Shown here piece by piece: positions 37,217 to 48,648 of a DNA stretch of 49,718 nt. The translations under genes and the position numbers were made by a program. How positions within the stretch are numbered: the stretch's first letter is position 1; each line of letters opens with the position of its first letter. Origin of the DNA: Candidatus Nomurabacteria bacterium (lineage in GTDB: Bacteria > Patescibacteriota > Minisyncoccia > Phycocordibacterales > UBA9973); assembly GCA_026395955.1 (NCBI GenBank), contig JAPLXR010000005.1:1-49718 (forward strand), written 5' to 3'. The notes under the pieces are model-generated. The model was not told the DNA's origin. It did not search any database and worked only from the letters and a program-made list of their open reading frames with translations.

Positions 37217-38971
37217 ATGACTAGCTCAGAATTACTCGATAAATTACTCGAAAAAAGAGGTTTACACACAAAAGAAGACAAAGAAAGTTTTTTAAATCCT
37301 AATTATGAGCGGGATATTTTAGACCCTTTTTTGATGCGTGATATGCAGAAATCCTGTGAACGTATTTTATCTGCGATACAAAACAATGAGAAGATTTTGA
37401 TATATGCCGACTACGACTGTGACGGTATACCAGGAGCAGTTATTTTAAATGATTTGTTTGAAAAGTTAGAATACAAAAATTTTGATGTGTATATTCCTCA
37501 GAGAAATTCTGAAGGGTATGGTTTAAATACTGAATCAGTTGAGAGAATGAAAGAAGACGGAGTGAAAGTTTTAATAACTATCGACCTCGGTATCACAGCT
37601 ATAGAAGAAGTTGCTGATGCACAAAAGCACGGTATCGATGTGATCGTGACGGATCACCATTTACCTCATGCAGAAATTCCAAAAGCTTTTGCAATTTTAA
37701 ATCCAAAGTGCGATGACTATCCAGAAAAAATGCTTTGTGGTGCTGGAGTGGCTTTCAAATTAGCGCAAGGATTTTTAAAATATTTGAAAGGATCAGGGCT
37801 TTCCTTTTCTTCGCCTGCGGAACTCGCTTCGCTCAAACAGTCCTCGGTGTCAGAAAAGCAAATCCCTACTCCTTTTATTCCAATAGAAATTCAGGCTGGC
37901 TGGGATAAATGGCTTCTCGATATGGCAGGACTCGCAACGCTTTCAGATATGGTTCCACTTCTCGGAGAAAATAGAGCGATAGCGTATTTCGGTATGAAAG
38001 TTTTAAAGAAGTCTCCACGCCCAGGACTGAAAGCACTTTTGCGAAAAACAAAAATTGCGCAAGAATATCTCACTGAAGATGATATCGGTTTTATGATTAC
38101 TCCACGATTAAATGCTGCGTCACGTATGGATGATCCACGCAGAGCTTTTGAATTACTAGCAACGAAAGATACAGCAGAAGGGGAAACACTTGCGAACCAC
38201 CTTTCAAATATAAATGATGAAAGAAAAAATCTTGTGAAAAGTATTATGCGAGATATAAATAAAAAATTTGAGAAAAGAGAACACACAGAAGTCATCGTCA
38301 TCGGTAATCCTACATGGAAAGTCGGCGTGCTCGGACTCATTGCTGGGAAAATTACAGATGAATATAAACGCCCAGCCTTTGTGTGGGGACGAGATGAGAA
38401 TGATGTTATAAAGGGTTCCTGCCGTTCTGATGGCTCGGTATCCGTCGTAGAACTAATGACTGAGACAAAAGAGCATTTCACAGAATTCGGTGGGCATGAG
38501 GGCGCAGGAGGATTTTCTGTTCATAATGATAAGATTCATTTCCTTGAAGAAGCACTTTGTAAATCTTTTATAAAAGTTTTTGAGAGCGGGAAAAGGCAAG
38601 ACCTTAAGGGGGCCCAAGGTCTTGCCTTGAGGAGCGATCTCACTTTAACTCTCGATGACATCAGTATGCAGAATTGGAAAGAAATAGAAAAAATGGCACC
38701 ATTTGGACTCGCGAATCCGAAGCCAATGTTTTTATTTGAAAATATTCCCGTTACGGCTATGAAAAAATTCGGCAAAGCTGAGGAGCATTTGGAATTTATG
38801 TTTACAAATTCTCGCGGACAAAAGATAAAAGCTATTTCTTTTTTCTCTACACCTGAATCTTTTACAAAAACTCCTGCTGTCGGCGAACCAATATCACTCC
38901 TCGCCACTTTCGACCTTTCCCGCTTCGCCGGTCGTGTCGAACTTCGTCTCCGAGTGGAAGATATTATTTAA
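37217..38971 (+). CDS. recJ: ssDNA exonuclease RecJ
   Basis: DYDCDG, EGYGL, VTDHH, LCGAGVAFKL, PRLNAASRM, GSCRS, FGGHEGAGG. Confidence 0.95.
   Translation: MTSSELLDKLLEKRGLHTKEDKESFLNPNYERDILDPFLMRDMQKSCERILSAIQNNEKILIYADYDCDGIPGAVILNDLFEKLEYKNFDVYIPQRNSEGYGLNTESVERMKEDGVKVLITIDLGITAIEEVADAQKHGIDVIVTDHHLPHAEIPKAFAILNPKCDDYPEKMLCGAGVAFKLAQGFLKYLKGSGLSFSSPAELASLKQSSVSEKQIPTPFIPIEIQAGWDKWLLDMAGLATLSDMVPLLGENRAIAYFGMKVLKKSPRPGLKALLRKTKIAQEYLTEDDIGFMITPRLNAASRMDDPRRAFELLATKDTAEGETLANHLSNINDERKNLVKSIMRDINKKFEKREHTEVIVIGNPTWKVGVLGLIAGKITDEYKRPAFVWGRDENDVIKGSCRSDGSVSVVELMTETKEHFTEFGGHEGAGGFSVHNDKIHFLEEALCKSFIKVFESGKRQDLKGAQGLALRSDLTLTLDDISMQNWKEIEKMAPFGLANPKPMFLFENIPVTAMKKFGKAEEHLEFMFTNSRGQKIKAISFFSTPESFTKTPAVGEPISLLATFDLSRFAGRVELRLRVEDII
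37787..37875. repeat. ~88-bp structured palindromic element, copy 1, in-frame in recJ
   Basis: Long terminal stem around the core CTGCGGAACTCGCTTCGCTCAAACAGTCCTCG; core 38/42 identical to copy 2. Confidence 0.8.
38591..38628. repeat. 38-bp palindromic element in-frame in recJ
   Basis: AAGGCAAGACCTT-aagggggccc-AAGGTCTTGCCTT; related to 40678-40715. Confidence 0.75.
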
Positions 38972-38988
38972 GATAAAAATTTGTTATA

Positions 38989-39034
38989 AAAATAAATGTT
39001 AACTACTTCTGCTATCGCTGAGTTATTTAACATT
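38989..39034. repeat. 46-bp palindromic site at the 3' end of the PaaX/Cas2-like gene
   Basis: AAAATAAATGTTAACTACTTCTGCTATCGCTGAGTTATTTAACATT; 40/46 identical to 39527-39572. Confidence 0.85.
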
Positions 39035-39505
39035 ATATGCCTTGGCTAATTTAAAAGTTTTGACGGCATCTTTTAGGTGAATCTTTTTTAAATATTCCAT
39101 AAATTCTTTTGGAAGTGGGGAAGGACCGACCCAGACACTTCGCTGGATCATAACATAACTAAATTTTTTCAAATGCCAGCGGAACCACTCTCTTTCCGCT
39201 TTTTGTGTTTCAGGAATATCAAACATAACAATTAGATTTTTAGGTGTGTCTTTTGAAAAATGATTCTCAAATTGACTCAATGATTCCGCTTTCTTTTTCA
39301 TATAATTTTTCCCTGTAAGAGTAATATGCCAGCCTTTGTCGGTATTTTCAATCAGACCCTTTGTTTTCATATAAGAAAGCGTCGAACGCATGTTTCCATA
39401 GGATTCATTTTTGAATTTTGGTAAACCAAAAATATTTACTTTTGTTCCTTTATAGGAAAGGGAAGTATTTTCCAGGGTTTCTAAAATTTTTTCTATTAGT
39501 TTCAT
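39023..39505 (-). CDS. PaaX-like wHTH plus Cas2-like domain protein
   Basis: wHTH segment RSTLSYMKTKGLIE...WHITLTG; Cas2/PaaX-like LIVMFDIPE, REWFRWHLKKFSYVMIQRSVWVGPSP. Confidence 0.8.
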   Translation of the reverse strand: MKLIEKILETLENTSLSYKGTKVNIFGLPKFKNESYGNMRSTLSYMKTKGLIENTDKGWHITLTGKNYMKKKAESLSQFENHFSKDTPKNLIVMFDIPETQKAEREWFRWHLKKFSYVMIQRSVWVGPSPLPKEFMEYLKKIHLKDAVKTFKLAKAYNVK

Positions 39506-39526
39506 AACTTAATTATATTATAAGTT

Positions 39527-39572
39527 AAAATAAATGTTAAGTCTTTTTGCTATAGCAGAGTTATTTAACATT
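39527..39572. repeat. 46-bp palindromic site upstream of the PaaX/Cas2-like gene
   Basis: AAAATAAATGTTAAGTCTTTTTGCTATAGCAGAGTTATTTAACATT; dyad centred on GCTA|TAGC with AATGTTAA/TTAACATT outer arms. Confidence 0.85.
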
Positions 39573-39648
39573 TTATATTTTGATATGGTATGTTTGACTT
39601 TAAATACAAAATATTTTACAGTTAAATAAATTGTAAAATATATGTATC

Positions 39649-39948
39649 ATGAAAAAAATAGCAAAGTCCTTTAAATTTCTTTGGTGCCCTCTCCAGAAAT
39701 TTTATAAGTTTTTTCACAAAGTGAAATCAAAAAATAGAGGAATTAAGTATGTAACTATTATTAATACTGGTCTAAAAAATGAACTTGGAGAAGTTATTTT
39801 TGAAACTGGTGAAAGTGGAGTTACATATATGACTGAACCAAAAGTAAAAAAAGCAGAAAAACAGTTAGGAGATTTTAAAAATTTTCTTAAGAGGGTACAA
39901 AAAATACCATCAAGAAATGATCCTTTTTGGTTCGAGCGATTTAATTAA
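39649..39948 (+). CDS. hypothetical basic protein (accessory cassette)
   Basis: 99 aa. Promoter TTGACT (39594), 17 bp, TACAGT; weak terminator at 39953-39978. Confidence 0.55.
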   Translation: MKKIAKSFKFLWCPLQKFYKFFHKVKSKNRGIKYVTIINTGLKNELGEVIFETGESGVTYMTEPKVKKAEKQLGDFKNFLKRVQKIPSRNDPFWFERFN

Positions 39949-40010: not shown

Positions 40011-40484
40011 ATGTCAGAAAAAGTAATAATTTATACAGATGGGGCGGCGAGGGGGAATCCGGGTCCTGCGGGATGGGGAGCTATAGTTATTGATGGTAAA
40101 AAAGTACACGAGCTCGGTGGAAGGTCAGACAAGGCTACGAATAATCAAATGGAACTTTCAGCACCTATTGGCGGACTAAAATATTTAAAGAAACATAAAA
40201 TGTCAAAGGGCACCTTTGACATTGAAATATTTTCAGATTCAAAATATGTGATTTTGGGAATTACTGAATGGATTTTTAATTGGCAGAAGAATAATTGGCG
40301 AAATGCTGCGAAGAAGCCAGTGGTGAATCAAGAACTTTGGGAAGAGCTTTTTGAACTCACAAAACTTTTCAAAATAAAATGGACTTATGTGAAAGGTCAC
40401 GCAGGTGTTGAATGGAACGAACGCGCAGATGTGATAGCGACAAGTTTTGCCGATGATGAACCTATTAAATTAATTAGTCACTAG
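40011..40484 (+). CDS. rnhA: ribonuclease HI
   Basis: IYTDGAARGNPGPAGWG, TNNQMEL, SDSKYV, WTYVKGHAG..WNERAD. Confidence 0.95.
   Translation: MSEKVIIYTDGAARGNPGPAGWGAIVIDGKKVHELGGRSDKATNNQMELSAPIGGLKYLKKHKMSKGTFDIEIFSDSKYVILGITEWIFNWQKNNWRNAAKKPVVNQELWEELFELTKLFKIKWTYVKGHAGVEWNERADVIATSFADDEPIKLISH
40199..40223. repeat. 25-bp palindrome in-frame in rnhA
   Basis: AATGTCAAAGG-gca-CCTTTGACATT, encoding MSKGTFDI. Confidence 0.65.
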
Positions 40485-40487
40485 ATT

Positions 40488-41858
40488 ATGCGAAACAAAT
40501 TTACTTCATATTTATTAATCATATTAGTAATTGTGACAGTAATAAGATTTTATATTATTTTTATTAAAAAAAATCCTGACATAAAGTTGGGATTTTTTTC
40601 TGGCACGAGTGTGATACAAGACGAGTCGGATATAAGAGAGACGAATCAGAAACTAACGGTGGAAATTTTTACTCCTCAAAGTCGGACCTTTGGCTCCCTT
40701 AAGGACCGACCTTTTCCCGTAAAAATTTTAATCACGACCGATTTATTTACTGACTATAAATACGGAGATGAAATTAAATTCTCCGGGATGCTCGAAAAGC
40801 CAGACAATTTTGAAACAGATCAGGGGAAGATTTTTGATTATATAAATTATCTGAAAAAAGATGGGATATATTTCTTGATGAAAAATCCTAAAATAGAAAT
40901 ACTTTCTAGGGGTAATGGAAACTTTTTAAAAAGTATTTTATTTTCTGCGAAAGAAAAGTTTTTAGAAAAGATGAATAGGGCAATACCCGAGCCTGAGTCA
41001 CTCCTAATGGGTGGGCTGATACTCGGAGAGAAGTCTTCTTTCTCTCAAGCTCTTCGCCAAAGCTTCGTGAATACAGGCACGATACATATCGTCGCGCTTT
41101 CTGGATACAATGTCACCATTGTTGCTGAGTGGATTATGAAAATATTTGGTGCTATTTATTTTGTGCCGAAAAATTTTGGAATTGGTATGGGAATATTTTC
41201 TATTGTTCTTTTTGTTTTGATGACGGGAGGAAGTAGTACTGCTATCCGAGCGGGGATTATGGCTGTGCTTGCACTTTATGCGCGCGCGACCGGCAGGAAT
41301 TATGATGCCGGTCGCGCGCTTCTATTCGCTGGAATCATTATGATTTTAATAAATCCATTACTTCTCGTTTATGATGTCTCATTTCAGCTTTCATTCCTCG
41401 CCACTATCGCTGTGATATTTTTATCACCGAAACTCGAAGAATATTTTTACTGGATTAAATGGGCTTGGCTTCGCGATATCGTATGTGTGACTTTTTCTGC
41501 TTATGTTTTCGTCACACCATTTATTCTCTATCAAATGGGTAATCTGTCCGTCATCGCATTACCGGCAAATATTTTAATTTTGCCTTTTATTCCACTTACT
41601 ATGATCCTCGGTTTTATTACAGGGTTCCTTGGTCTCATTTTCTTTTCGCTAGCTATACCATTTGGTTATATTTCATATGCATTTTTGCATTATGAACTCG
41701 GGGCAATAGCCTTCTTCTCAAATCTACCTTTTGCATCTTTCACCATACCAAATTTCCCACTAATTTTAGTAATTTTAATTTATCTATTTTTCTTTTATAA
41801 ACTTTTTTGGAAAAGCATTAAGAAATGGTTGAAAACTAATTTTTTTTCGGCTGCGTAA
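40488..41858 (+). CDS. comEC: ComEC competence channel (OB/DUF4131 plus Competence domain, no MBL domain)
   Basis: FDYINYL, GTIHIVALSGYNV, AIRAGIM, DVSFQLSFLAT; many TM helices. Confidence 0.92.
   Translation: MRNKFTSYLLIILVIVTVIRFYIIFIKKNPDIKLGFFSGTSVIQDESDIRETNQKLTVEIFTPQSRTFGSLKDRPFPVKILITTDLFTDYKYGDEIKFSGMLEKPDNFETDQGKIFDYINYLKKDGIYFLMKNPKIEILSRGNGNFLKSILFSAKEKFLEKMNRAIPEPESLLMGGLILGEKSSFSQALRQSFVNTGTIHIVALSGYNVTIVAEWIMKIFGAIYFVPKNFGIGMGIFSIVLFVLMTGGSSTAIRAGIMAVLALYARATGRNYDAGRALLFAGIIMILINPLLLVYDVSFQLSFLATIAVIFLSPKLEEYFYWIKWAWLRDIVCVTFSAYVFVTPFILYQMGNLSVIALPANILILPFIPLTMILGFITGFLGLIFFSLAIPFGYISYAFLHYELGAIAFFSNLPFASFTIPNFPLILVILIYLFFFYKLFWKSIKKWLKTNFFSAA
40678..40715. repeat. 38-bp palindromic element in-frame in comEC
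   Basis: Reverse complement AAAAGGTCGGTCCTTAAGGGAGCCAAAGGTCCGACTTT is 28/38 identical to 38591-38628, with compensatory stem changes. Confidence 0.75.
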
Positions 41859-41910
41859 CTCGCTCCGCTCAAACAGTCCTCGCTGTCAAAAAAATTGTTT
41901 CCACCCATTT
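41823..41910. repeat. ~88-bp structured palindromic element, copy 2 (comEC stop / sod 3' end)
   Basis: AAATGG...CCATTT terminal stem; core CTGCGTAACTCGCTCCGCTCAAACAGTCCTCG. Confidence 0.8.
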
Positions 41911-46472: not shown

Positions 46473-46634
46473 TTGACTTTTATTTTACTATATGTTAATC
46501 TTATTTTGAAACACTTAGTGTATAAAATATTTTTAAAAAAGAAAGAATAACTAGAAATCACGCCATGGTTTTTAGAACCCCTGAAGTACAAGACTTCGCT
46601 ACTTTATCGTCTTGTATGGAGGGGGATTTTTTTT
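46473..46634 (+). ncRNA. candidate small RNA / ORF-less cassette
   Basis: TTGACT (46473), 17 bp, TAATCT promoter; ends in hairpin CCCCT..TACAAGAC...GTCTTGTA..AGGGG plus T8; no credible ORF. Confidence 0.35.
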
Positions 46635-46688
46635 GACAATTTAATATATATTTTGTAACTTTAAGTAAATAAACAAATTGTTCTAAAA

Positions 46689-47180: not shown

Positions 47181-47342
47181 TACTTTTATTGGCTTAGTTG
47201 GGTGTCATGGCCCGTTGTTTAGTTTGTGATTAAGCCGAAATCCCTCATCAGAGTATTCTGTTTGAGGGATTTTTTATTTGACTTATATAGCTATATTTTG
47301 TATTGTTTAGGTAAATATAAACAGTTCTAAAAAATAAATAGA

Positions 47343-47702
47343 ATGAAAAAATACTCAACAACACCGCTAATTATCTTAAAACTTGAGAAAGATAATAAAG
47401 ATAATCCAACTGGTATGCAATTACGTATATGGTCATTAGATAATGGCACTACTATAGTAGTCCGTTTATTAGAACACGATGAAAGTGCAACTCAAGCCTT
47501 GTGGAATAAAAAAACCAATGGAGAAGTTAACGATTTTATCCTTGGTTTTCTTAAAAAACAAAAGATTATTAAGAAAATCTCAAACTGGCACTATGATAAT
47601 GATATTTATGAAATAGTTCAAGAGCAAGATGAGTTTGAAGAAGCAGATGAATGTGTATATTTCTGCTGGAAAGTAAAATCAGAATTGATTAGTAAGTTTT
47701 AA
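47343..47702 (+). CDS. hypothetical protein (accessory cassette A)
   Basis: 119-aa ORF with promoter at 47278-47306 and terminator at 47710-47737. Confidence 0.6.
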   Translation: MKKYSTTPLIILKLEKDNKDNPTGMQLRIWSLDNGTTIVVRLLEHDESATQALWNKKTNGEVNDFILGFLKKQKIIKKISNWHYDNDIYEIVQEQDEFEEADECVYFCWKVKSELISKF

Positions 47703-47786
47703 ATTATAAAAGCCTCATAGAAATAAGAGGCTTTTTTATTTGCAAAATTGAGGTACTTTTATTTATTGTTTAACATAATTATCCAC

Positions 47787-47806
47787 ATCTACGCTATAGC
47801 GTAGAT
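47787..47806. repeat. 20-bp perfect palindrome upstream of the Cas2-like gene
   Basis: ATCTACGCTATAGCGTAGAT, abutting TTATCCACA at 47779-47787. Confidence 0.9.
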
Positions 47807-47829
47807 TATAAATATAATATAATTAATAT

Positions 47830-48204
47830 ATGGTTCTAAATAATAAAAAGAAATACAAAGGGGTTTCTGTAAACATCTTTGGATTACCAAATTTAGATAA
47901 TTCTAAAAAAGAAAATACTGAAAGTAAAAAAATTCCAAAAAGAATTTATCTCGATTCTTTTACTGCTGATTTTAAAGAGAATGCACCAAAGAATTTAATT
48001 CTTATGTATGATATTCCAGATAATATGAAAAAGCATCGGGATTGGTTTCGTCGTCAATTAAAAAGTTTTGGTTTTATAATGGTTCAAAAGAGTGTATGGG
48101 TCGGCCCATCACCATTACCAAAAGACTTTTTAGAATATTTGAAAGAAATTAAAATAGGGGACAAGTTTAAAACTTTTAAATTAGCTAAAGCTTATAAATT
48201 CTAA
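47830..48204 (+). CDS. PaaX/Cas2-like domain protein lacking the wHTH
   Basis: Paralog of 39023-39505: YKGVSVNIFGLP, PKNLILMYDIPD, RDWFRRQLKSFGFIMVQKSVWVGPSPLPKDFLEYLK, KTFKLAKAY. Confidence 0.8.
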   Translation: MVLNNKKKYKGVSVNIFGLPNLDNSKKENTESKKIPKRIYLDSFTADFKENAPKNLILMYDIPDNMKKHRDWFRRQLKSFGFIMVQKSVWVGPSPLPKDFLEYLKEIKIGDKFKTFKLAKAYKF

Positions 48205-48226: not shown

Positions 48227-48246
48227 ATCTACGCTATAGCGTAGAT
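48227..48246. repeat. 20-bp perfect palindrome downstream of the Cas2-like gene
   Basis: ATCTACGCTATAGCGTAGAT, identical to 47787-47806. Confidence 0.9.
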
Positions 48247-48327
48247 GAAATTTTGCTGTTTGACTTATCTCAGTATATTTTGTATTGTTTGGATAAATAT
48301 AAACAGTTCTAAAAAATTATCTTAAAA

Positions 48328-48522
48328 ATGAAAAGTGATAGTAGTAAGGTATCAAATACCTATATTGAAGAAAAACCGCTTGATGGAGATAGTGCCTTTT
48401 GGCAAAGATACGAAGAAGTAAATGAAAACTGCAAAAATCGGTCAAAAGAAAAAGCAAAAAAAGAAATTGAAAAAGTTCAAAGGAGACATGAGTTGGACTA
48501 TCGTATGGAAGAAGAATTTTAA
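48328..48522 (+). CDS. small hypothetical protein (accessory cassette B)
   Basis: 64-aa ORF with promoter at 48260-48288 and terminator at 48530-48556. Confidence 0.55.
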   Translation: MKSDSSKVSNTYIEEKPLDGDSAFWQRYEEVNENCKNRSKEKAKKEIEKVQRRHELDYRMEEEF

Positions 48523-48648
48523 ACGTTTTAAGCCTCGTAGAAATACAGGGCTTTTTATTTGCAAAATTGAAAGAAATGTTTTATATTAAAGGTATATAGG
48601 GCTTAGGCCTTTTTATTTTATTAATAAGTAATTATAAACAAATATTAT

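Follow-up and report, generated by a model that had tools for sequence, protein, structure and literature searches.

The bracketed gene at 39 kb

We describe a small gene and the pair of palindromic repeats at its two ends in a 49,718-nucleotide (nt) stretch of DNA from a Candidatus Nomurabacteria bacterium (contig JAPLXR010000005.1; hereafter, the window means this whole stretch). The host is an uncultured freshwater bacterium with a genome of 0.70 Mb that is 94.9% complete. The gene encodes a 160-amino-acid (aa) protein in which a winged helix-turn-helix (wHTH) domain precedes a Cas2-like domain, and we read it as a probable minimal relative of the repressor PaaX that would act on its own promoter and be bracketed by two cognate sites. 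The features of the locus are as follows.

37217 to 38971, strand opposite to the 160-aa gene: recJ
38989 to 39038, no strand: downstream (3') dyad, overlapping the end of the 160-aa gene (final four codons plus stop), 17 nt past the recJ stop
39023 to 39505, minus strand: wHTH plus Cas2-like (PaaX_M) gene, 160 aa, from the list of open reading frames (ORFs), Pfam, and NCBIfam
39512 to 39517, minus strand: -10 box TATAAT, 6 nt ahead of the ATG, predicting a leaderless mRNA
39527 to 39576, no strand: upstream dyad (core dyad 39532 to 39572), between the gene and the divergent ORF99
39535 to 39540, minus strand: -35 box TTAACA from a promoter scan, identical with the left arm of the upstream dyad
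39565 to 39622, plus strand: two candidate promoters for ORF99, weak, with 9/12 matches each
39649 to 39948, plus strand: ORF99, the variable "cargo" gene of the recJ/rnhA insert, 99 aa, of no known family
40011 to 40484, strand opposite to the 160-aa gene: rnhA

The two direct repeats are each 50 nt long, 86% identical, and 538 nt apart, where none would be expected by chance, and a degenerate 41-nt pattern built from both recovers these two places alone in the window and nothing in 100 shuffles. Each is an imperfect dyad of about 41 nt, with the cores GCTATAGC and GCTATCGC and the outer arms AATGTTAA/TTAACATT; the two halves are 76% complementary in the upstream copy (39532 to 39552 with 39553 to 39573) and 78% complementary in the downstream copy (38995 to 39012 with 39017 to 39034). 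The upstream repeat ends 21 nt ahead of the ATG and merges with the promoter: the top promoter-like site between 38850 and 40050, TTAACA-17-TATAAT (11/12 matches), is the one that takes its -35 box from the left arm, and the first candidate promoter of ORF99 uses the right arm TTAACA in the same way. No promoter was detected at the downstream dyad, which sits between the stops of recJ and the 160-aa gene, and no terminator-like site between 38850 and 40050. The predicted RNA folds of both dyads are weak (-7.4 to -9.2 kcal/mol; z = -1.5 to -2.7), and positions 38800 to 39800 gave no match in Rfam.

The original prediction, made from the letters of the sequence, had placed a wHTH plus Cas2-like gene antisense between recJ and rnhA and between two palindromic direct repeats, one 21 nt before the ATG and the other over the last codons and the stop; it had also seen the same layout in a paralog at 47.8 kb, with neither cas1 nor a CRISPR array. 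Each of these points held up here and below, and ORF99, which that account left out, has to be added to the locus.

A winged helix joined to a Cas2-like domain

In Pfam, the 160-aa protein is matched by PaaX_M (E = 3.6e-13; 49.9 bits against a cutoff of 24) and CRISPR_Cas2 (2.2e-5), and its N terminus gives weak wHTH matches, all under their cutoffs. The NCBIfam cas2 model TIGR01573 yields 26.9 bits, barely above its cutoff of 24.5, and the PaaX equivalog TIGR02277 fails with 14.8 bits (cutoff, 264.55). An AlphaFold (AF2) model, with a mean predicted local distance difference test score (pLDDT) of 83.4, shows a winged helix (helix at 36 to 48 and wing at 52 to 61), followed by a beta-alpha-beta-beta-alpha-beta domain. 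When this model was used as a Foldseek query, nothing was recovered at an E of ≤1e-3; Cas2 chains rank first and Escherichia coli PaaX (8a39) ranks third over 169 aligned columns, at an E of about 1e-2. Profile and fold matches of the N-terminal domain are to S19e, MarR, PadR, and CggR. A single-protein sequence search of solved structures returned no match, and a profile search of them returned only weak Cas2 and wHTH matches (E, 2e-4 to 1e-2).

The chain ends with the Cas2-like domain, and the C-terminal helical effector domain of PaaX is not present; a search for longer forms of the family recovered a single protein, with an unrelated domain. Three residues, D96 (the beta-1 Asp of Cas2), R105, and R109, are the same in all 38 sequences compared, even at 18% identity. 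The domain resembles Cas2 and VapD in its ferredoxin-like fold, in this Asp, and in the Arg pattern of helix alpha-1, and differs from Cas2 in being fused to a DNA-binding domain and encoded by a gene that is itself bracketed by the repeats, which do not enclose spacers. No HUH/Y1, transposase, or integrase fold is found among the Pfam or Foldseek matches of the protein. PADLOC returned Cas2 models only for the protein and no match for the four neighboring ORFs. There were no cas1 matches in the 94.9%-complete genome by a search that was positive in 7/14 genomes used as a control, and a k-mer scan of the genome found no CRISPR-like array, its sole match being an irregular coding repeat. No paa genes were seen among the neighbors of the 160-aa gene.

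Paralogs with private sites

The genome has five PaaX_M genes, and the identity between paralogs is only 54 to 59%. Four of the genes have dyads of about 40 nt on both sides, one ahead of the start and one past the stop. The arms are particular to each of these paralogs (TGTTAA, CTCACCAC, AGTGACACA, and ATCTAC), and within a gene the two sites match each other throughout or, failing that, in the core; at the paralog with CTCACCAC arms (C4), the downstream site has the core alone in common with its class. The fifth, more distant gene (C9:45902) has an upstream dyad only, lying over a TTGACA box, and is followed by an ordinary terminator.

A short paralog stands in the window between rpsG and fusA, with these features.

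47787 to 47806, no strand: perfect 20-nt palindrome upstream of the short paralog, covering the -35 region
47818 to 47823: -10 box of the short paralog
47830 to 48204, plus strand: short paralog, 124 aa, which retains the Cas2-like domain but has lost the recognition helix and the wing from its wHTH
48227 to 48246, no strand: second copy of the same palindrome, downstream of the short paralog and 13 nt before TTGACT
48260 to 48265: TTGACT of the promoter-like leader of ORF64, itself at 48328 to 48522

This paralog occurs at rpsG/fusA in 5/30 genus loci, with both dyads every time, and its dyads fold at -10.4 and -12.4 kcal/mol (z of about -4).

The same region holds two further repeats. A promoter-like leader is found at 47264 to 47345 and again at 48246 to 48330 (86% identical over 66 nt), with a weaker version at 46619 to 46657; the copies precede three unrelated small ORFs between rpsG and fusA, and a comparison of the copy at 47264 to 47345 with the genome gave no copy beyond the two in the window. 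A 24-nt direct repeat (92% identical; 47728 to 47751 and 48547 to 48570), made of a terminator tail plus TTATTTGCAAAATTGA, brackets the block of the short paralog, its dyads, and ORF64, and is possibly a trace of the insertion or duplication of this block.

Paired dyads across the genus and the phylum

Relatives of the gene are present in all 24 other genus genomes searched. We scored a downstream copy where at least 21 of 30 positions matched the gene's own upstream dyad no more than 145 nt past the stop, with control windows taken from the same loci. Such a copy accompanies 32 of the 45 nonredundant genes of the bracketed group versus 1/205 control windows, and several of the 13 misses have mis-set starts or inserted genes. 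A distant subgroup of seven genes gives downstream scores of 14 to 21, which equal background, and has the upstream dyad only, over a TTGACA box. Phylum-wide, PaaX_M occurs in 75/301 sampled genomes, and paired sites, at an identity of ≥21/26, flank the gene in 13/29 scored loci from many families; in 5 of these 13 loci the two sites are 26/26 identical, and 3 of the 5 have perfect 36-nt palindromes. The family comprises >1,380 proteins at an E of ≤1e-5, with up to 12 copies per genome. Paired dyads are a general rule of this family, shared across the phylum.

The position of the upstream site relative to the promoter also recurs. A -10 box (TAnnnT) lies 5 to 8 nt before the start of 41/53 family genes versus 85/1,060 random positions, and the dyad center is 26 to 47 nt ahead of the start in most loci. 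Because the -10 box is this close to the start, the family genes are read as probably leaderless, with the dyad over the -35 region. Start codons here are as a rule preceded, at 6 nt, by an extended -10 box, which implies widespread leaderless mRNAs; in genus genomes without the insert (loci L032 to L060), the rnhA promoter is TGATATAAT, about 6 nt before the ATG and inside the last recJ codons (window positions 38950 to 38971).

The surroundings of the 3' site are more diverse. By ORF-based counts that include a few miscalls, the gene beyond it is convergent in 22/45 loci, co-directional in 18/45, and missing within 450 nt in 5/45. Where the neighbor is co-directional, a leaderless promoter often lies 30 to 70 nt past the 3' dyad (by eye); at two recJ/rnhA loci (L103 and L120) a cargo promoter is beside the 3' dyad, and in short-paralog loci a TTGACT promoter follows it. 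The 3' site is kept whatever lies beyond; we infer for it a role either in looping to the upstream site or as a protein roadblock.

Anatomy of the site and its possible match to the protein

The sites share one order of elements, namely, an outer arm of 6 to 9 bp, an A/T-rich spacer of 4 to 5 bp, a GC-rich half-core, and 4 central bases, followed by the second half-core, spacer, and outer arm; the site of the window gene is TGTTAA-N25-TTAACA with the conserved center CTGC-TATC-GCAG. The asymmetric center (TATC or GATA) points in either direction relative to the gene. Mismatches in 44 dyads comprise 40 G.T, 50 A.C, and 196 other pairs and carry no wobble signature of a folded strand. T-rich runs follow some sites and are absent in many loci. 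The lack of wobble bias, the center in either orientation, the weak RNA folds, and the lack of an Rfam match together speak for dyads that would be recognized as double-stranded DNA by a symmetric protein.

Across 21 close members (210 pairs), identity is 47% in the N-terminal half and 75% in the Cas2-like half, so that the variable half of the protein parallels the variable arms of the site and the constant half parallels the constant core. The core, in turn, changes with residue 110 of helix alpha-1: His (R-x-H) goes with CTGC, and Gln (R-x-Q) goes with ACGC or ACGG. On this basis, the winged helices would read the arms and a Cas2-like dimer would read the center; the sequences are kin, and the covariation of site and protein is for that reason only a lead.

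One probable old position between recJ and rnhA

The order hit-recJ-rnhA-comEC is syntenic in the genus, and 4/30 loci contain the gene in an insert of 1.04 to 1.22 kb, with an extra gene that differs from locus to locus. The remaining 26 loci are empty: 22 have gaps of 0 to 42 nt, too short for a dyad, and the four longer gaps show no family dyad by eye, so that the single palindrome expected at emptied sites was found at none of them. Extra genes belong to every inserted block and lie within the bracket or beyond it. Two of the cargo genes beside the dyad are, by eye from sequence, NUDIX-like and deoxyribosyltransferase-like, and the others are unknown small ORFs; cargo is unrelated between genomes and takes three different positions relative to the dyads. 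Both recJ/rnhA and rpsG/fusA are variable hotspots.

On a quick recJ tree, the four filled loci are scattered and require four changes, at least two of them forced, and the sister species (G045) is empty at recJ/rnhA, with a support of 100. All 12 of the nearest relatives found in the genome_contigs set (57 to 97% identity), three of which are the same proteins as in the 4 filled loci, lie at recJ/rnhA. The closer the recJ of a relative, the higher the identity of its protein to that of the window; this points to a single old position that has seen repeated loss or allele replacement, and not to transposition. The mobile cassette recombining at its palindromes, which the original prediction had offered as one of two options, is not supported for the gene by these findings: there is one recJ/rnhA position, no solo dyad was found at empty sites, and the inserts hold extra genes. 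An excisable cassette bounded by its own repeats is likewise not supported, as no dyad was found at the empty sites and the inserts extend past the bracket.

Decay and rearrangement are visible near the dyads. Two of the three closest copies are pseudogenes (L120:2001-2461 and L127:2001-2428), with independent deletions that removed the beta-1 strand with its invariant Asp and shifted the frame, leaving the upstream dyad intact. The L120 locus has a cargo block between duplicated copies of an arm. In related strains, contigs are broken at 39535 and at 39574, where the upstream dyad has its two edges, a weak hint that comes from contigs only. In contigs of a run X3 strain (about 92% identical in rnhA), position 39574 is joined to the rnhA start (40015) without ORF99, and a different sequence lies on the other side of the upstream dyad. 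No circular junction was seen in the related-strain contigs, which cannot reveal rare forms.

A second, unlike repeat was noticed around this locus. It is 53 nt long, 89% identical between its copies, and higher in G+C than its surroundings. One copy (37805 to 37857) is in frame in recJ, where residues from about 190 to 223 make up an insert that most genus homologs lack, and comEC has the other (41841 to 41893) at its 3' end. The repeat resembles a small element without palindromes that a reading frame tolerates.

Solo dyads at other genes

The CTCACCAC class has five copies, namely, the upstream site of the C4 paralog, two intergenic solos, and two less perfect solos in ORFs. One intergenic solo lies between a uvrD-like gene and rsmA, at the rsmA start, and is kept in two close relatives. 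The other lies between rpiB and a leaderless rpe-like gene and stops 3 nt short of the -10 box of the latter; it is present in 1/30 genus loci, and the corresponding gap of the sister species measures 10 nt. The less perfect solos are in the ORF of a reverse transcriptase of the diversity-generating retroelement (DGR) type and where an amidase ORF begins. The amidase copy (C3:58044) falls in the signal peptide region and has 22 identical bases with the rpiB/rpe solo. The TGTTAAC class of the window gene has one solo, in the same reverse transcriptase ORF. A family-like dyad of the ACGCCATGGCGT type was also seen in a truB-like ORF (C6:2165).

Seven genomes (L165, L167, L171 to L174, and L176) have inserts of about 820 nt between rpiB and rpe, and the others have gaps of 6 to 40 nt; by eye, the inserts encode an inositol-monophosphatase-like gene of 264 to 273 aa. 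The idea that the rpiB/rpe solo is the relic of a lost family gene was dropped, as no ORF of these inserts matches the family profile.

The reverse transcriptase is at the following place.

G000 C2:33613-34746 (L091:1614-2747): DGR-type reverse transcriptase, RVT_1 at 1.3e-25, with an adjoining bAvd gene

It has a 45-aa in-frame insert just before the motif KGLPLGN that consists of two family dyads of different classes (at about C2:34195-34320) plus a third small palindrome. Most genus homologs are without the insert, and some have one dyad there, in the same frame; a family dyad occupies the same spot in at least five other genomes. The dyad-bearing reverse transcriptases are 48 to 71% identical to one another, and one that is 48 to 52% identical to the C2 copy also has a dyad. 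Either the family targets DGR retroelements or dyads land in this loop by preference.

The sister species, which has a gene of the distant type only, lacks the four bracketed genes, strict cores, and arm-class sites, including those of CTCACCAC, and the number of strict cores per genome ranges from 0 to 5 in 41 genomes. By these comparisons, the dyads do reach new places, if rarely.

A proposed minimal autorepressor between two cognate sites

These observations are best explained, in our view with a probability of roughly 60%, by a minimal autorepressor of the PaaX type that is encoded between two cognate sites. The protein would be a winged helix plus a Cas2-fold dimer core, without the ligand-binding C-terminal domain of PaaX, and the two flanking dyads would be its own predicted binding sites. 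The winged helices of the dimer would read the two outer arms of 6 to 8 bp (TGTTAA-N25-TTAACA), and the Cas2-like domain, via helix alpha-1 with its invariant R105 and R109, would probably read the GC-rich center CTGC-TATC-GCAG. Bound at the upstream site, the protein would cover its own -35 box and the promoter of the divergent neighbor, resulting in self-repression. The 3' site would be a second cognate site under selection, either looping to the upstream site or setting a roadblock to transcription at the 3' end of the gene, and solo copies of a paralog's site at other genes would form small private regulons.

Several findings support this repressor. The best promoter of the region takes an arm of the upstream dyad as its -35 box; the distant subgroup (7 loci and C9:45902), with its upstream dyad only, has the layout of a plain operator; solos with the arms of the C4 paralog stand just before the -10 box of the leaderless rpe-like gene and at the rsmA start; and the sister species, which is without the four genes, is also without their sites. 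The second option of the original prediction, a repressor with operators at both ends, is in this way the better supported one, from promoter overlap, a PaaX-like geometry, and a pairing of sites that is general.

According to a review of the paa pathway, E. coli PaaX consists of a winged helix, a motif for dimerization, and a domain at the C terminus, binds TGATTC(N27)GAATCA, and represses its own promoter by hindering RNA polymerase (PMC9493321). PaaX (8a39) and the family have in common a winged helix followed by a Cas2-like domain, 6-bp inverted arms about 25 to 27 bp apart, and occlusion of the own promoter, which is described for PaaX and proposed here. The family differs in that its protein is half the size and without the C-terminal effector domain, in having no paa genes nearby, in the added GC-rich center of its site and the second site at the 3' end of the gene, and in its several paralogs per genome with private sites and solo sites inside ORFs. 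Autorepressors of the PadR, MarR, and CggR families also have a similar N-terminal domain and a palindromic operator over their own promoter; none of these families is known to keep a family-wide second cognate site behind its own stop codon.

A number of points weigh against the autorepressor. That the protein binds the dyads, dimerizes, and represses, and what the 3' site does, are all proposals from sequence. The neighbor is convergent in 22/45 loci, including that of the window, where a role of the 3' site as the operator of a further promoter is impossible and any other role is a guess; the spacing of the two sites shows no helical phasing (n = 37; Rayleigh P of about 0.1), although at spacings of 440 to 770 bp this test does not decide on looping. 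The identity and palindromy of the most similar phylum-wide site pairs exceed what an operator needs, and the invariance of the Asp down to 18% identity is not obviously required of a pure dimerization scaffold. The paralogs of 122 to 125 aa have lost the recognition helix yet retain dyads of about 30 nt at both ends. The solo at rpiB/rpe entered a 10-nt gap after the split from the sister species, the in-frame solos in ORFs are unlike operators, and two of the three closest copies of the gene are pseudogenes. With the patchy presence on the recJ tree, the pseudogenes, the solos at new sites, and the invariant Asp, the idea of the original prediction that more than a plain repressor is at work keeps some probability.

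Alternative explanations

Some of these points would be explained if gene and dyads formed a selfish module in which the Cas2-like domain is a metal-dependent nuclease acting on the dyads, perhaps as cruciforms, and nicking or joining at the dyads copies them to new places and keeps the flanking pair alike. This we consider unlikely. The analogy is with the repetitive extragenic palindromic (REP) sequences and their associated tyrosine transposases (RAYT), in which the gene lies between two imperfect palindromes of about 35 to 40 nt that belong to a lineage-specific class with solos in short intergenic gaps. RAYT is an HUH/Y1 enzyme whose substrate is a folded single strand, and REPs come in tens to hundreds of copies. 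The family is similar in that its gene lies between palindromes of a class dispersed in the genome and differs in the wHTH and Cas2-like folds, in having 0 to 5 copies, in the lack of a hairpin signature, and in the location of the upstream copy within the promoter. Such a module would explain the invariance of the Asp, with that of the two Arg residues, the perfectly identical site pairs (26/26 in five phylum-wide loci), and the dyads inside ORFs, among them those in frame at one loop of reverse transcriptases that are 48 to 71% identical. It also agrees with the enclosure of each paralog by two dyads of its own class alongside dispersed solos of that class, the rpiB/rpe solo of a single locus that corresponds to a 10-nt gap in the sister species, the duplicated arm flanking the L120 cargo block, the patchy presence on the recJ tree with its pseudogenes, and, as a weak hint, the contig breaks at both edges of the upstream dyad. 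What counts against it is that strict cores are so few in each of the 41 genomes, that paralogs only 54 to 59% identical imply no recent burst, that orthologs keep one position with identity tracking recJ, and that empty sites have no solo dyad. Moreover, the orientation of the dyads is not fixed and their mismatches carry no wobble signature of folding, the protein has neither a transposase nor an integrase fold and its nuclease activity is hypothetical, and all of the promoter-overlap observations fit a repressor better.

Taken further, the Cas2-fold domain would be an active sequence-directed DNA enzyme with the dyads as its substrates, in a self-maintaining palindrome system of the candidate phyla radiation (CPR); we regard this as quite improbable. 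If true, a Cas2-like protein would keep, homogenize, and occasionally copy its own repeats, also into the reading frames of retroelements, and would be related, as a free-living form that works without Cas1, to the half of CRISPR adaptation that handles repeats.

Slightly less probable again is a controller of an accessory, defense- or addiction-like island, possibly a nuclease toxin of the VapD/Cas2 type, with the bracket representing two controlled promoters. Every recJ/rnhA insert does have a different extra gene beside the dyad, cargo promoters adjoin the 3' dyad at L103 and L120, a TTGACT promoter lies past it in short-paralog loci, and both rpsG/fusA and recJ/rnhA are variable hotspots. 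However, PADLOC offers only Cas2 models for the protein and nothing for the four neighboring ORFs, the cargo is unrelated between genomes and stands in three positions relative to the dyads, the 3' dyad of the window has no gene to control, and there is no conserved antitoxin-like partner.

Dyads that act as RNA or single-strand hairpins, either as insulating intrinsic terminators or as processing sites for a Cas2-like RNase, are very improbable: the short-paralog dyads do fold well (z of about -4), T-rich runs follow some sites, and no other terminator-like site separates the 160-aa gene from the convergent recJ, but the promoter downstream of the upstream dyad leaves that dyad outside the gene's own mRNA, the folds at 39 kb are weak, mismatches show no G.U bias (40 versus 50), many loci are without T-runs, and there is no Rfam match.

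Implications for Patescibacteria

No description of the family or the layout was found in the searchable literature, which leaves out subscription papers and supplements, so that an earlier one is possible. Patescibacteria have very small genomes and few recognized regulators, and the family is abundant there. Its members are labeled "hypothetical," "Cas2," or "PaaX" at the source, and the Cas2 label wrongly suggests CRISPR immunity. The layout rule predicts a site for every member, that is, a dyad of about 40 bp at both ends of the gene with private arms and a core tied to the Cas2-like helix. Regulons would become readable from sequence on this rule, with the reverse transcriptase genes of DGRs as an unexpected target. 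A site behind the stop codon, even one that faces a convergent gene, would be an unusual regulatory layout. If the invariant Asp is catalytic, the family would link Cas2 to the recognition of repeats outside CRISPR.

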